A stretch of 51,676 nt of DNA from a phage, in the sequence record PZ534514.1; one strand, written 5' to 3'. Below are positions 7,832 to 45,221 of the stretch, one piece after another. Below the pieces are notes generated by a model. That model was not told where the DNA came from and did no database searches. It saw nothing but the letters and a program-made list of their open reading frames with translations. Numbering within the stretch: the first letter of the stretch is position 1; each line of letters begins with the position of its first letter. Both the position numbers and the translations under genes were made by a program.

Positions 7832-10800
7832 TTACCACGTACCAGTAAGCCTACCAATCTGAACACGCAAGCGCCCGTTTGCGTCTCGTACACTTATCGT
7901 TTCATTTGTCAACTTCATGGCCCCTTCTCCAGATGTAGAACCGTAGTTCTCAAATCTTCCGCTTTTATCCAGCCTCCAACCCTGCTGATTGGCAACAAAG
8001 TTATTCGACTGAATATAATTACCGATCATAGCATTTGTGATTGAACCGTTTTTAACTAACAGGCTATTAATGAAAACTTGGTTGTTTTCAACAACAAAAG
8101 GCAAAGTAAACGTTCCGCCAGTCGAGCTAGTCATAATCGCGAACCTGTTCGCGTCAAACAAGATTTGCGAGATAAGGCCGGATGAACTCTGCGAAAGCTG
8201 CATTACCATTCCTGCGCTGTACTTCTGCCCGTTGTAAGTTAACCCAAGTTTCATTGAGTATTTAGCACCAACAGACGATACGCCAGCCCATGAATCAAGT
8301 TTTTGAGCTAATGCAGATTCAACGTCTCCAAACTTAGCTGTTAACGCCTGGTCAGCCTGTACCCTTGCCTCTGTCTCGTTAGCGATAGCCTGTTTCACTT
8401 CAGAGATGTTAGCCTCAACCTCAGTCTTAATGACTCCGTTTAAATCTTCGATCTCCTTTGTGAACTTCGCATCAAGCGCGTTAACGGCCTGCGCGCGCGC
8501 TTCTGACTCATTGGCAATGGTTTGATTCACCTGATTAATGCTTGCGGCTGTATCGCGTTTTACACCGTCAATTTCAGTTGTGAATTTTGAATCCAAAGCA
8601 TTTATTTGAGTTGCTCGCGTTTCAGATTCTGTGGCGATAGCCTCCTGCACTGTCTTTATACTTGAAACAATATCCTCGTCGATTGACGCCCTCAACTCTT
8701 CAATCTGCGTAACTCGCGCCTCAGTCTCTGTGGCTATAAGTTCAAGAGCGTGACCGTACTCAGCCTTTCTCTTTCCGTTTTGTACTCGCGTCCACTTAAT
8801 ATCAGCATCATTAGCAAGAGCATTCTGGATGATTGCTTGCGCCTGGTCCTTTATCTTGTTTGCACTGTCAATAGCGTTCTCTTTCAGATCCTGACCTGCT
8901 TCAGTGTCAAAAATCTTATCAAGAATATCTCCTAAAACAGCCTCCACATCATCTGAAGCCATACCTCTAACAAAATCAGTCCAGCCGGAAACGTTGCCGA
9001 TTCTGTCAACGCTGCGGATCCTATACCAGACAACATGACCAGCCGGAAGCGTACCGTGCCAGTATTCATATTGTGGATACGGGATCAGCGTTAGCAGGCT
9101 TGAGTTTTCAGCCGTTCCATCCGGCGACTGGTGAAGCTCAATGTATGCCGTGTCTCCGCTCCCTTCTGGCATACCCCACTTAACACGAATGCCAAACACC
9201 TCATTGTCTGACGCAGTTAAGTTAACTGGCGCGCCTGGCTCTCCTACCTTACCAGTCAGTGATGCTGTCACAATTCTGGACCACGGAGATGTAGAACCTG
9301 AAGCGGAAACAGATCTAACCCTTACCTGGTAGTTTCCTGAATAAATACCTTCAACCTCAATTTCTTTGTTTGCGGTCTGTGGTGTATTCAGCCAGTTGCC
9401 ATCACCTTTTCGCCATTGCATTTCATACAGCGATGCGTAAGGTACTTTATCCCACGACACAACCATTGTTTCAACGCTTGCACCCTGGACAATTCGCGAG
9501 TATGAGGATATTTGCACATTTTCAGGCGCTGCCATTGTGTCAGGCTGGACAATTGAAGTTGGCCTGTCGTCAATGTTTACTCCATAATCAATCTCGTCGT
9601 ATTTGTTCGGGTCATATTCAACAGCCGTGATGGAGTATGTAAATTCATCATCATCATCACCTTTGCCGATACTCGTTACAACGTATTGCTGCAATGCAAT
9701 ATCAGTGCGGTCGATTGCAAAAACCGTGTCAGGTTTAACTTCAAACCCAAACCCAATGTTTAGTTCAATGGTTTTTCCGTCACCGCTTACTTTTGAGATT
9801 GTGCGCTTAACTGGCTTTCCGTCCGGCTTGTTGATGATAATGAAATCACCTGGTCGCGCGTCAATCTTAAACGGAACGAACACCTGCAAGCCGGAAACTT
9901 CCATCACGCGCCCTGATAGGTTTAATTTAAGGTTGCTGCTGTGAAAATTGTCAGCAATAGCAATCACATCACCTATTGATGGGATCATGCCTTCCAGTCC
10001 AGTAGCAAAGTTTACCGTAGTGCTGCGCAAGTTGGTTTTCAGTATCCATCGACCGCGCCGATTAGCCTCACTCCTGCGTGTACATCCGATCGCGGTTATG
10101 CTTGTAGGATTGTATCCAAAGCGCAATGCGGCCTCTGTGTCGAATACACCCTCTACGTCCTGTTGATACATGTTTTGTTCGTCATCGAACGTCACGTTGC
10201 ACTGCGTGTACATGCTCTTTTCACTTGCTGTTGTGTACTGAAAATCACCATCAACAACATTGTCATTTGTGAAGATGTACGACGGATCGCGCGGCTTATC
10301 AATGACGATTGACAAGCTCTCTCCATTCCAAAAGCTCATGCCTCGGAAGATTGAGCAAATATCACGAATAAGCTGATAAGCCTCAATCTGGCTTTGAATC
10401 ACAACGTCGCATAGATAACGCGGCTCTGTACCGCCTTTCCCGTCAGGCACTTTCTGATCGCAGTATTGCGCCGCTTCGTAAAGACTCCATTTATCAACTT
10501 GTACACCAAGTTCTCGCTGATCTAATCCATATCGCTGGTTTGTGATAATGTCATAAAGCACCCACGCCGGATTATTCGACCACGCTTTCTTGAACGTGCC
10601 ATTCCATGAACCGTGATACTCTCTCAAAACAGGATCGTAGTTACTCGGAACGTTAATCAGCTTCCATTTCTTCTTGATTGAAATGTTAGGGATCTGATTT
10701 GGGAATAATTCGCTGTCAAATTCAACGTAAACAAGACCAGTCAGAGGATAACGGAATTTTGCATCAATAACCTCAGCGTAACTTTGTAGTTTAATCAGAT

Positions 10801-33442: not shown

Positions 33443-33486
33443 ATTATACCTGGCCCCACATTTGAGTTTTAACAATTCGTGCTATT
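33443..33486 (-). promoter_or_regulatory. Promoter-like element, conserved motif family
   Basis: Minus strand AAATAGCACGAATTGTTAAAAC, 21-22 bp, TATAAT. Confidence 0.55.
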
Positions 33487-34367
33487 TACACTTTGACTTT
33501 CCACTTAACCATAGTTCCGCGCTTGATGCTGATCTCTCCTGCAACAGTCCGGTTTTTCGCACTGCCATAATGAAGCAGAAGAATAACAACGTCATCATGA
33601 ATCTCGATCGTCTTTGGCTTTGCCGTTAATTCATACCATGCGCCATCATCAAGCTGGACTCCTTTTAGCGTGGCTGCAACTGGCATATCTTCAATAGCGC
33701 TCTGACTTACGAGATCTTGCGCAACAAGACCGGACGCCTTGATTGTTTGACTGTGAATCTGCTCGCCAATACGTCGCGCAGCGTTGTCTATTGCCTGCGC
33801 AAAATATGATTTACCTCCGCCAATTGGCGCATCTCCAAACAAGTGTTTTGTAATGTCTTCCACGTAGTACACCTTATCTTCTTCATTGTGCGGATTGAAT
33901 TTGTTATGAGCGTTGACAAAGAAATCAACCTTAAGCTCTGATTTCTGACCGTCGCTATAGACGCCGTTTTCTGGTGACGTATAGCGAATCGTTGAGTTAC
34001 CAACCGTGCGGAACACGATCGGATACTTGATGTTATCCACGCTTAAGCACCACAGCTTTTTGTAGTCGCAGGTTTTCATATTGACCATCGGAATTTCTGC
34101 GCGTTCCGGCGAGCGCACTGGTAACACCTGGCCTTTATATGGCTTGTAGTGCAAGCATGTGTAGCCTGGCATTGCGTAACTGTAGTCTCTGAGTGAGTTG
34201 TAGTGTTTATTGTGCGCTTCAATGAAGTGTTCAATCTCCATTGTTGAAGCGTTTGGACTTCCGTATTCGTTAAACTTAGTGCATGTCTTCTCGTCGGAAA
34301 ACATGAAGTGACCAACGCCGCGAGATTCGAAGGTGATCGGGAATTTAATGTTAGCAAGTTTTAACAT
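33486..34367 (-). CDS. Hypothetical protein with internal tandem duplication (293 aa)
   Basis: Two repeats: IKFPITFESRG...FIEAHNKHYNSL and IKYPIVFRTVG...FVNAHNKFNPH; RBS aggag. Confidence 0.65.
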   Translation of the reverse strand: MLKLANIKFPITFESRGVGHFMFSDEKTCTKFNEYGSPNASTMEIEHFIEAHNKHYNSLRDYSYAMPGYTCLHYKPYKGQVLPVRSPERAEIPMVNMKTCDYKKLWCLSVDNIKYPIVFRTVGNSTIRYTSPENGVYSDGQKSELKVDFFVNAHNKFNPHNEEDKVYYVEDITKHLFGDAPIGGGKSYFAQAIDNAARRIGEQIHSQTIKASGLVAQDLVSQSAIEDMPVAATLKGVQLDDGAWYELTAKPKTIEIHDDVVILLLHYGSAKNRTVAGEISIKRGTMVKWKVKV

Positions 34368-34930: not shown

Positions 34931-35185
34931 AATATCTGTTGTGACTTGTTGGTGCATTACGTTTTTGCCGCTCCGGTATGTGCTATCCGTTGCGCCATTA
35001 CAATTGGTGTAATAGATTGCTCGACCGTTGTCATAGAATCGGTACGCGGTGCATCCATCAACAGTAAACAGGCGACCGACTTTAAAATCTGACTCCACGC
35101 CTACGACTACCGTTGATTCAGATGCCTTTTCGCATCCGGTCAGGGTAGCAATTGCAATCAAAACTCCAATTAATGCCTTATTCAT
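34925..35185 (-). CDS. Small lipoprotein (second lipoprotein gene)
   Basis: Signal peptide with lipobox LTGC; 86 aa; second gene of the leftward early operon. Confidence 0.7.
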   Translation of the reverse strand: MNKALIGVLIAIATLTGCEKASESTVVVGVESDFKVGRLFTVDGCTAYRFYDNGRAIYYTNCNGATDSTYRSGKNVMHQQVTTDIK

Positions 35186-35655
35186 TATTCATCCCCCACC
35201 TTTACCATCTCGTTGAGCATTTCATTCATTCGCTCAAGTGCGATTGCCGCACCCTCCAGGCGCTCACCTTCCAGATCACTGATTCGCGGCTGTGTTTTCA
35301 GTAGTTGAGCAATAAACTTTGCTCGCCACTTGATTTCAAGTTTCGCTATATCATCCCCAGTCAGAACGCGAGGTTTGCTTTTGGCTTCAGTGAGCGCAAA
35401 CACAAAGCCATCACCCTCATCAGTCACCTTTCGCTTAATGCTGATCACGCCTTTTTGCTTCACTTCAGGTACGCGGTTGACAACCTGGCGCATGTACGAT
35501 GCCGTAATTGCTTCGCCGTTCTCCACATTAGCGCACAAAAAAAGCGCTGGCATGAATACATTATTACGCTCACCACTACCAATTGCCGCGCCCAGGTCGC
35601 GAAGCATATCGCAGAACTCACTACGCGACATAGAACTAACATTTTCTTCATTCAT
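35185..35655 (-). CDS. Hypothetical early protein (first gene of leftward early operon)
   Basis: 156 aa, RBS aaggag, next to the divergent control region. Confidence 0.65.
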   Translation of the reverse strand: MNEENVSSMSRSEFCDMLRDLGAAIGSGERNNVFMPALFLCANVENGEAITASYMRQVVNRVPEVKQKGVISIKRKVTDEGDGFVFALTEAKSKPRVLTGDDIAKLEIKWRAKFIAQLLKTQPRISDLEGERLEGAAIALERMNEMLNEMVKVGDE

Positions 35656-35829
35656 GGCGTCTACTCCTTTTGTTGCGTTTAAACTGGCTGCATTATTGCC
35701 TTGCCCTTCCTACATGTCAATGTATTTTTGTGTTTTGATAACAATTTTTGGCGCATGGCGTGTTTAAAGATAACAAAATGCTTCAGTTAAGCCATTGGTT
35801 TTTCTGTTAAAAATGACCTTGTTGACTTG

Positions 35830-36040
35830 GTTGACGGAGGATTGCTCCATACCCATATATATACATACAAAAATCACCACACATCACCATTGATTAAAAA
35901 ATATACAATCACACATACATATCACCGCAAACAATACCACTCCACCATATACCCATAGAACAATCTCAACAGTAAATAACAAATATAAATACATATATAA
36001 CTAACTTATTGATTTTATGGGCATATATATAAATTTTATT
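35830..36040. promoter_or_regulatory. AT-rich divergent control region with ATCACC repeats and IHF-consensus site; homologous to 6230-6440
   Basis: ATCACC repeats at 35871-35930; taacttattgatt at 36002-36014; repeated ttgacttggttgac at 35822-35835. Confidence 0.5.
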
Positions 36041-36308
36041 TTGTTCTTTTTGTTGATGAACGCCGATTCTGTTATCTAAAAGTGCGGAGGCTTGATTGTG
36101 ATAACGCAGGGAACAGAAATAACAGATGCGCTCTCCAGGATTGCCGGAAAGGACGCAAGAGGGCCGCGTTTCTCTATCCCCTCCACACAAAAAGTTAATC
36201 AACTGATTAAAATTGATCAAACTCAAAGTCTCACAATCCAGGTGATCGCGAATGATTTATTCCTGTTATTCCTGATTAATGGAATAGATGGAATAATGAC
36301 CAGCCAGC

Positions 36309-36354
36309 AAATAGCACTTTTTGTTAAAACTGAATTGTCCTGATCGGGTACATT
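36309..36354 (+). promoter_or_regulatory. Promoter-like element, conserved motif family
   Basis: aaatagcactttttgttaaaac, 22 bp, tacatt, leader acatcgaaacga, RBS aggag, ATG at 36393. Confidence 0.55.
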
Positions 36355-36392
36355 AGACACATCGAAACGAGATACCCATCAGGAGAAAGCAA

Positions 36393-36665
36393 ATGAACAT
36401 CAGCAAAACCACTTTCAATTTCGCCAAGCGTCATGGTCTGGACCTGACTGTTGAGAATTTCGGCGATGTTCTGCAACTCTGCATTTGGGAAGCGGACAAC
36501 GATTGCGAGTGGCTTTGCTCTTATCGTATCAACTACGATTGCTTAACCTGGCATGGCAATGTTTACCTGCCGCAAGAAGTGAAAGAGGAATTGCCAGCGA
36601 CCATCAACAACGAAGTGTTTTTGCGCAAAGTCCTGAAGTTTATTGCCGAGGAGATCAATAAATGA
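36393..36665 (+). CDS. Hypothetical early protein
   Basis: 90-aa ORF. Confidence 0.6.
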   Translation: MNISKTTFNFAKRHGLDLTVENFGDVLQLCIWEADNDCEWLCSYRINYDCLTWHGNVYLPQEVKEELPATINNEVFLRKVLKFIAEEINK

Positions 36666-38020: not shown

Positions 38021-38215
38021 ATGGAAACACAGGTTGATGTTAAAGTTGTACAGCGTGACACCACTCACGAGAAAGGAATCTTTAAGAAAGGCACTATCAT
38101 CACCATTGATCTTGAGGATATGGTTGCGTATCACTCCGGCCTGACATGGAACGTTGTTAAACATGGCAATGCTTTCAAACTGTGTGGATTCAATACTTTT
38201 ATGGAGGTTGTGTAA
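38021..38215 (+). CDS. Hypothetical protein
   Basis: 64-aa ORF, RBS gaggatt. Confidence 0.55.
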   Translation: METQVDVKVVQRDTTHEKGIFKKGTIITIDLEDMVAYHSGLTWNVVKHGNAFKLCGFNTFMEVV

Positions 38216-44105: not shown

Positions 44106-45221
44106 TCAACCAGCCATTTCTGGATAATGCATAAATCGCCCGACTTCTCCGTATTCTTTATCGTAAACAATAACAGCCGCACGGCGACGAGAACGCCACC
44201 CACCGCGCGCCGCATATGCATCTTTTGCCGCCATAGTGCTATGCACTTCAACAATGCCCAGGCTTGTTTCAGTTACTGTCTGATGATGCCAGTGCCCTAC
44301 GTGAGCATACATCATTTTTGAATTGCCGAAGTCTTCGCGCCAGTCTGCCGCGCACATCATTAGCAATGTTTCAGGTTTGCGGATAGTATGCCCGTGATGG
44401 TATGCCAGGAACGTTTTGCCATATTGTGTGTGATGAACTACTCGCGGAGACACATCAACATGCACACGCGGCTCATTCTCATATGCTGCCGCCATTGCTG
44501 CGCGCAACCAGATCATGCCGCTTTGGTCGTGGTTTCCTTCAATAATCTGAATCTCGACGTTTTTGTGTTTTGATAACAGCTTTGTAATTGCTCGACGCAC
44601 TGACCGAATGGCAACGTAGACCAGTTTTGCGTATCGACTATCTTGATCCAATACGTGACCGCTTGCAGGTGTTACCGCTTCCAGTCCGTCGCTGTGAAGC
44701 ATATCACCACCAATCAGCAAGACAGCTTTTTCACTATCCGGCGCGCACTGGATGGAATAATCAATGAAATTATTCATTACGCGCTCTGCTGTTGCTGTAT
44801 CCCAATTCTCGCCGCATTCATGCTTATGCGCCATTGCTCCCAGGTGCATATCAAAGATCGGATACAGTGATAACGTCTCGCTATAATCATTTTGTGATTC
44901 TTGCTGTGGATCAAGTCGAGGAACTTCTTCGCTAAATGCATCCATAGCGGCCTGCATTAATGCTTCTAACTGTTCGCGGTCCTTACTTGTCTTAACCCAT
45001 GTCATAACCACATTGCCATCTTTATCAATTAGCTTTGATTCTCCAGTAACACCAAAACCAGGTGATCCGATGGTTGTAACTTTACCTTGCTTTGCTAATC
45101 GTGCCGCGCGGCGCTCAATGCTGCGAACGTTCATACCATACTCATTAGCGATCTGCTTATATGTCTTTCCCTGCTTGCGCTCATTGATAAATTGTTCATC
45201 TGTGATTTTGATTTGCTTCAT
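44106..45221 (-). CDS. Calcineurin-like metallophosphoesterase with N-terminal HTH
   Basis: ATG at 45221 with RBS aaggag; GDMLHSDG and EGNHDQ motifs; HTH-like YKQIANEYGMNVRSIERR. Confidence 0.7.
   Translation of the reverse strand: MKQIKITDEQFINERKQGKTYKQIANEYGMNVRSIERRAARLAKQGKVTTIGSPGFGVTGESKLIDKDGNVVMTWVKTSKDREQLEALMQAAMDAFSEEVPRLDPQQESQNDYSETLSLYPIFDMHLGAMAHKHECGENWDTATAERVMNNFIDYSIQCAPDSEKAVLLIGGDMLHSDGLEAVTPASGHVLDQDSRYAKLVYVAIRSVRRAITKLLSKHKNVEIQIIEGNHDQSGMIWLRAAMAAAYENEPRVHVDVSPRVVHHTQYGKTFLAYHHGHTIRKPETLLMMCAADWREDFGNSKMMYAHVGHWHHQTVTETSLGIVEVHSTMAAKDAYAARGGWRSRRRAAVIVYDKEYGEVGRFMHYPEMAG

Follow-up and report, generated by a model that had tools for sequence, protein, structure and literature searches.

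Described repeat systems and the phage array

HipB operators have the form TATCC-N8-GGATA. Short repeated words are also found near packaging cut sites, where the pacL boxes of SPP1, the pac hexamers of P1, and the R sites of lambda cosB serve in recognition by terminase. The operator of NanR in E. coli likewise repeats a short word, with spacers of 2–3 nt. This operator, (GGTATA)3, is bound cooperatively by GntR-type dimers; at least two close copies are needed, and longer spacers weaken binding (PMC8012715). T1-family phages possess a 21-nt repeat of their own, aaATAGCACnnnTTGnTAAAA, which was described for phage TLS with its role left as an open question; that report (German et al. 2024) lists only the 21-nt repeat and does not describe the array analyzed here (PMC11447400).

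The array lies in a phage sequence of 51,676 nucleotides (PZ534514.1), the whole of which we refer to as the window. Around the array, the window is 94–95% identical to Escherichia phages phiE31-2 and KarlJaspers and to Salmonella phage slyngel, and by sequence comparison it is a Hanrivervirus (T1-like; Drexlerviridae, Tempevirinae). An earlier note on this DNA had picked out an operator-like repeat array at 36257–36296 (TTATTCCTGTTATTCCTGATTAATGGAATAGATGGAATAA), and our analysis bears this out: four hexamers are arranged as TATTCC-3-TATTCC-8-GGAATA-3-GGAATA, a pattern that occurs nowhere else in the window. Hexamers L1 (36258–36263) and L2 (36267–36272, 9 bp after L1) read TATTCC on the plus strand, and hexamers R1 (36281–36286) and R2 (36290–36295, followed by a conserved AT) read GGAATA, that is, TATTCC on the minus strand. 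Each pair thus has a 9-bp period, and the pairs are separated by an 8-nt center (TGATTAAT, 36273–36280). In a repeat search, the two 16-nt arms were complementary at 13 of 16 positions (81%). The doublet TATTCCNNNTATTCC matches exactly only at the array, once per strand, with 0.25 matches expected at one mismatch or fewer in shuffled sequence. Judged by the genome's own hexamer frequencies, the four GGAATA/TATTCC copies in the 130 nt before the adjacent promoter box compare with 0.077 expected, an approximately 50-fold excess (Poisson P ~1.4e-6, before correction for ~2,000 hexamers). A fifth, degenerate unit, CAAATA (36308–36313, minus strand), is proximal to the promoter and shares the first 3 bp of the promoter box; its counterpart is GAAATA in some Hanriverviruses and a perfect GGAATA in T1, SRT8, IME347, and BabyEgg.

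The NanR operator appears to be the closest documented architectural precedent. Both elements repeat a 6-bp word with short spacers, and the NanR word is one base from GGAATA. GGTATA itself, however, was never seen in the 22 distinct arrays that we collected, all of which carry GGAATA. The array also has units of mixed orientation and lies upstream of its promoter, whereas the Nan operator is downstream of the polymerase site. With HipB operators, the inner TATTCC-N8-GGAATA shares the inverted geometry and a near-identical half-site, and several such operators stand side by side at one promoter. The array differs in having one extra base per half-site, a 9-nt center in many relatives, and added direct-repeat units. 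The T1-family 21-nt repeat adjoins the array and, at its 5' end, shares bases with one hexamer in most phages (GGAATAGCAC), but the two differ in sequence and in number, the array being present once per genome and the repeat in about 18 copies. The array is a second conserved cis-element, one that T1 itself carries, and it marks the junction of the packaging cut, the divergent promoters, and the first early genes. Although T1 ranks among the founding model phages, almost nothing is known of how its genes are regulated.

Conservation of the array and its relation to the first early promoter

The array is contained in a divergent intergenic region of 737 bp (35656–36392). To the left is a long minus-strand block that runs from a DUF7174 gene through small genes to the terminase and structural genes; to the right is a plus-strand block of small, presumed early genes. 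The minimum of the cumulative GC skew falls at this intergenic region. In all T1-like phages examined, the leftward block opens with the gene for the DUF7174 protein (35185–35655, minus strand, in the window); the homologues (T1 ST77, SRT8 gp57, TLS gp01, and those of PeterMerian and PaulSarasin) are extremely divergent, with Tunavirinae copies barely at the Pfam threshold. On the DUF7174 side there is a near-consensus sigma-70 promoter, TTGACA-17-AATAAT, at 35720–35692. A further feature of the region is a 161-nt stretch (35850–36010) whose plus strand contains 78 A, 41 C, and 38 T but just 4 G, with many CACA and ATATA runs; similar stretches are found in T1, TLS, PeterMerian, and PaulSarasin.

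Loci located via the first early gene, pattern scans of IMG/VR, and GenBank records together yielded the 22 distinct arrays, a set biased toward conservation since some arrays were collected by patterns requiring intact hexamers, a bias that the homology-retrieved subset offsets only partly. Across this set the hexamers are unvarying, and L1 is kept throughout; the sole change seen is L2 as TATTCT in BabyEgg. The spacers behave differently. The L1–L2 spacer has seven variants, the center is 8 or 9 nt long, free in sequence and unrelated among relatives, the last spacer measures 12–14 nt, and spacer sequences are unrelated between lineages. In Tunavirus, 0 of 24 hexamer columns are variable versus 21 of 65 others (Fisher P = 6e-4); the corresponding figures for type A arrays (defined below) are 0 of 24 and 45 of 194 (P = 0.006). 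All four units are intact in the four Tunavirus genomes that were fetched by homology and not by pattern.

Two main architectures can be distinguished. Type A, found in Hanrivervirus, is TATTCC-3-TATTCC-8-GGAATA-3-GGAATA-12-(C/G)AAATAGCAC. Type B, TATTCC-3-TATTCC-8/9-GGAATA-13/14-GGAATAGCAY, lacks the extra 9-bp unit represented by R1 and is carried by T1 and other Tunavirus, SRT8 (Sertoctavirus), IME347, and two metagenomic lineages; a scan of 2.9 million viral contigs found the type B pattern in full in 14, all of them T1-like. BabyEgg combines the extra unit with a perfect proximal unit. Copy number therefore shifts by whole 9-bp units: 3+1 in T1, four plus a degenerate proximal unit in the window, and 4+1 in BabyEgg. 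In every array type, the hexamers end 12–14 nt from the promoter box or overlap it, and most versions carry an additional hexamer that is joined directly to the promoter element as GGAATAGCAC. Absence from related phages, which the earlier note had named as evidence against its proposal, is not what we observed, given the presence of the array in T1, Sertoctavirus, IME347, BabyEgg, and metagenomic relatives. In Shigella phage 2019SD1 (L011/L143), the array region contains three single-base deletions; these are likely sequencing errors and not real frameshifts because all fall in homopolymer runs.

The element next to the array is a 20-bp promoter box, ATAGCACTTTTTGTTAAAAC (36311–36330, plus strand), which corresponds to the T1-family 21-nt repeat and matches the soxbox/marbox (PMC11447400; PMC2064960). 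The earlier note had recorded a motif at 36309 and placed the array just upstream of the first rightward early promoter. The motif is real, being one of 18 window copies of ATAGCACnnnTTGnTAAAA, and the position of the array is confirmed by the layout of box and -10 hexamer (TACATT, 36349–36354, 18 bp after the box). The 18 window matches to aaATAGCACnnnTTGnTAAAA are at 6508, 17329, 21089, 29604, 30949, 33467, 34447, 34910, 36311, 37449, 37946, 38598, 39996, 40672, 45789, 46809, 49333, and 49822; they include 36311–36329 but not the array, of which only the proximal hexamer overlaps the repeat. The fused form GGAATAGCAC, in which the proximal unit joins the box, occurs only at the first early promoter and not at the other ~17 boxes.

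The 20-bp boxes of the window and of T1 almost always have a good -10 hexamer at a distance of 18 bp, with 17–18 bp at nearly all boxes. This fixed distance indicates that the boxes are promoter elements centered near -40.5. The consensus soxbox of SoxS, MarA, and Rob is AYNGCACNNWNNRYYAAAYN (PMC2064960), and the window contains 21 matches to it at one mismatch or fewer, with 1.33 expected. A forward orientation overlapping the -35 region defines the class II arrangement (PMC6900184), and the phage box shows this geometry, being oriented forward over the -35 region and ending 17–18 bp short of the -10 hexamer. These matches suggest that host Rob, MarA, or SoxS, or a mimic of them, may drive most promoters of T1-like phages. 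No phage MarA-like protein was found in a domain search of the neighboring small proteins or by tBLASTn with SoxS and MarA sequences. The soxbox match would make the question of the 21-nt repeat testable with rob, marA, and soxS mutants.

We infer a transcription start near 36361, within a leader (ACATCGAAACGA..., 36359–36392) that carries the ribosome-binding site AGGAGA and precedes the first early gene, whose ATG is at 36393. The first rightward promoter is presumed to be immediate-early. Relative to the putative start, the hexamers occupy about -103 to -66. Conservation of the leader, ACATCGAAACGAGATACCCATCAGGAG, goes along with that of the first early gene (phrog_6147), and the leader may be a 5'-UTR element. 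In L018, a contig of 165 kb, the leader is preceded by a canonical sigma-70 promoter, TTGACA-17-CATAAT, situated at an equal distance from it; the homologue in L021 has a canonical promoter and no leader.

The array is conserved and non-coding, and it is very probably a protein-binding element of some kind. The best reading of it is a multi-site operator controlling the first early promoter, a specific role to which we give about even odds. Under the operator reading, each TATTCC/GGAATA hexamer would be one recognition unit, ordered as two direct repeats, an 8–9 bp gap, one or two inverted repeats, and a proximal unit 12–14 bp further on. A dimeric or higher-order protein would fill these units cooperatively, from roughly -103 to -48. 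The proximal unit shares 3 bp with the soxbox-like box centered near -40.5, and its occupancy would therefore exclude or contact the protein that reads the box. Exclusion would repress or shut off early transcription; alternatively, the occupant could contact both the box reader and the alpha C-terminal domain of RNA polymerase and so activate it. Protein binding, the sign of the effect, and the identity of the binder are all inferred in this scheme. The array provides a short, defined DNA bait for a protein acting at the start of infection.

Packaging, replication, structural, and coding alternatives

The packaging cut of phage Chapo was mapped from read ends to record position 68/69 (PMC7471380), at ...GGTAACAC/TAAATCCCCCCTCTCACAATC, where the slash marks the cut. 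In the window, a conserved block, GCGTTTCTCT/ATCCCCTCCACACAA (36166–36190), places the corresponding pac cleavage by homology between 36175 and 36176. The same position is where the record of G29-2, a Hanrivervirus, ends (/ATCCCCTCCACAC). The block TTTCTCT/ATCCCCTCCACAC is homologous to the Chapo cut and is kept in PeterMerian, PaulSarasin, and T1. This block is likely both the cleavage and the recognition region for pac; we place recognition here because the block is kept without the array and because the N terminus of the terminase small subunit is nearly identical in KarlJaspers and PeterMerian. Two features lie nearby. T1 (L169, 101–120, minus strand) and Chapo have a copy of the 21-nt box that no usable -10 hexamer accompanies; this copy lies on the packaged side of the pac cut and ends 32 nt from it, and its counterpart in the window is only a degenerate inverted copy (36066–36090). 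Between the pac block and the array there is also an inverted TAATCA/TGATTA pair (36196–36209). This second motif is present three times, at 36196–36201, at 36204–36209, and, within the center of the array, at 36273–36278.

Along with a role in replication, a role in packaging is a possible and serious rival to the operator. Like the terminase recognition repeats of other phages, the array consists of short repeated words within ~100 bp of a packaging cut, and the terminase small subunit or a helper could bind the hexamers for the first (pac) cut ~80–110 bp away. Several record ends and one mapped cut agree with this proximity: the reference record of T1 begins within the homologous region, at 39 nt from the array of T1 itself; the Chapo cut is ~107 nt from the array and adjoins ATCCCCCC; the record of G29-2 stops at the homologous ATCCCC, which is 81 nt away from the array, although the G29-2 paper carries no statement of how that end was set; and the SH2 and Shfl1 records start at most 15 nt from the Chapo cut. 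The distance from array to cut nonetheless varies (81 versus 107 nt), whereas that from array to promoter box is fixed, and the array lies on the non-encapsidated side of the first cut. Moreover, the array differs from pac and cos repeats in that it does not co-vary with the terminase small subunit and is absent from relatives that have the cut-site block and terminase. The block TTTCWCYATYCCCMC is kept in PeterMerian and PaulSarasin, neither of which has a TATTCC array, and the N-terminal region of the small subunit is almost identical between KarlJaspers, which has the array, and PeterMerian, which does not, while it has diverged considerably in T1, which does. A test of pac-site co-variation accordingly failed: the array is missing where the cut block (PeterMerian, PaulSarasin) and the PeterMerian small subunit are homologous. 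A packaging role of the array is thus possible but unlikely, and the accessory site just outlined is a shade less credible to us than the origin considered next.

The hexamers might instead recruit a replication initiator beside the AT-rich stretch between the divergent promoters, a reading that we consider improbable on balance. The stretch at 35850–36060 is 74% A+T and rich in ATATA, the cumulative GC skew has its minimum here, and no origin is known for T1-like phages (PMC11447400); the part at 35850–36010 could be the unwinding region of an origin. The skew minimum, however, is explained equally well by the switch in gene orientation, and the AT-rich stretch begins ~200 nt from the array. 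Typical iterons are phased units of 17–22 bp, unlike the array, with its 6-bp units, 9-bp period, mixed orientation, and only three to five copies. No initiator gene adjoins the array, the Cro-like protein whose gene neighbors that for primase shows no co-variation with it, and nothing about replication obviously accounts for the fusion of a unit to the promoter box. The earlier note had proposed an operator or an iteron array. What stands of this is a non-coding element with invariant hexamers and changing spacers and copy number; the choice between operator and iteron is undecidable from sequence. A hairpin, cruciform, or terminator formed by the inverted repeat seems very improbable. The 54-nt strand does fold at -6.9 kcal/mol (z = -3.06 versus shuffles), but type B arrays retain only a 6-bp complementary pair, the center varies between 8 and 9 nt, and it is the hexamer sequence and not the pairing that is conserved, without compensatory changes; the inverted repeat also has no T-run and lies upstream of the putative transcription start. 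We give equally little credence to the idea that the array encodes part of an 83-aa protein (open reading frame 36092–36343), despite the "hypothetical protein" annotated over this frame in phiE31-2 (gp046), slyngel (slyngel_66), and KarlJaspers (bas06_0064). The frame starts with TTG, reads through the promoter box, and is missing from type B phages that retain the hexamers; its product falls in no Pfam family above threshold, and the records of several relatives have no annotation over the region. Among nine distinct Hanrivervirus sequences, substitutions are spread evenly over codon positions (8:9:7 upstream and 8:6:7 downstream of the array), and the frame is broken in three relatives, by in-frame stops in two (L168, L163) and by a frame change in the third (L148). 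The view of the earlier note that no convincing coding sequence covers the array is thus upheld, and the open reading frame is probably not a gene.

Candidate binding proteins and other motifs at the same position

For the operator reading, the earlier note had proposed as binders two helix-turn-helix (HTH) proteins, encoded at 49365–49838 and 44106–45221, but their recognition helices follow phage phylogeny and not array type. In the Cro/YdaS-like regulator (49365–49838), the helix varies among array-bearing phages (SQQTVNQW in the window, SNQTVQGW in T1, SHQTIQQW in the type B metagenomic L193, and TNQNVNEW in SRT8), and the window helix is almost identical to that of PeterMerian, which lacks the array. 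Array-lacking phages have SQQVVNQW, SCQTINQW, THQVIQQW, and NLKTVWGW, with no segregation by array type. The SbcD-like protein (44106–45221), which has an N-terminal HTH, likewise tracks phylogeny. Other candidates fared no better. The window copy of DUF7174 is nearer to those of array-lacking TLS and PaulSarasin than to that of T1; the T1 ST2 family is present in array-lacking TLS, L014, and L020 and missing from the window; and the terminase small subunit, as described above, shows no co-variation with the array. The 79-aa second early gene is present at 16 of 16 type A loci and at none of type B, an association that we attribute to linkage. A 293-aa protein (33486–34367, minus strand) occurs also in array-lacking L005, L008, and L009. 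This protein has an internal N-terminal duplication, is annotated as a tail fiber in one relative, and is patchy in distribution, being present in T1 and some Warwickvirus-like contigs and absent from PeterMerian and PaulSarasin.

More generally, we found no phage protein family that occurs in genomes with the array and is missing from those without it. When four array-bearing and three array-lacking genomes were compared in six frames for presence or absence, only spurious alternative-frame open reading frames came up, and Pfam, PHROG, and PDB searches with ~30 neighboring small proteins gave no DNA-binding annotation. On the host side, a pattern scan of bacterial genomes for the array showed only chance or coding sites among the matches listed, BLAST of the array against E. 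coli genomes gave no match, and a literature search on the hexamer produced only noise. Because no phage protein co-varies with the array, we favor as its binder either a host-encoded factor or a fast-evolving small phage protein undetectable by sequence comparison. A host protein would be the simplest explanation for the occurrence of the array in both subfamilies, since word and spacing are identical in the two while their proteins are 50–65% identical and no co-transferred gene is found.

In array-lacking relatives, the same position is occupied by other sequences. PeterMerian (Warwickvirus; L170) has five copies of TGATTA in the array's place, upstream of the first early promoter. TLS (L231) has two perfect tandem copies of TAGACCGATTGGTC at 49791–49818, each part of a palindrome, located 8 nt upstream of the first early promoter box, with GATC sites clustered ahead of them; the arrangement looks like another operator in the same position. 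PaulSarasin (Changchunvirus) has no array but a TGCAA-rich stretch, in which no single motif is significantly enriched. This replacement of one motif by another indicates that the segment from the pac cut to the first promoter behaves as an exchangeable cassette, and it offers a natural set of swapped cassettes for studying specificity. We speculate, while regarding the full proposal as doubtful, that nearly all promoters of T1-like phages depend on a soxbox/marbox-like class II element recognized by a host activator of the MarA/SoxS/Rob type. The segment that precedes the first early promoter would be an interchangeable sensor cassette (with GGAATA arrays in T1 and Hanrivervirus, TGATTA in Warwickvirus, and tandem TAGACCGATTGGTC in TLS), each version recruiting a different host DNA-binding protein. 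If this were so, the start of the infection program would be tied to a physiological signal of the host.

Two further observations concern sequences beyond this region. A 52-kb IMG/VR contig that is not T1-like (L072; 2974699376) carries six GGAATA/TATTCC hexamers within 90 nt of intergenic sequence (10410–10500), with spacers of 2–3 nt. Among the early genes of the window, that at 38021–38215 encodes a small protein matching the Pfam family PF25180, "Phage antiviral trigger protein Gp54" (E = 4.5e-37).
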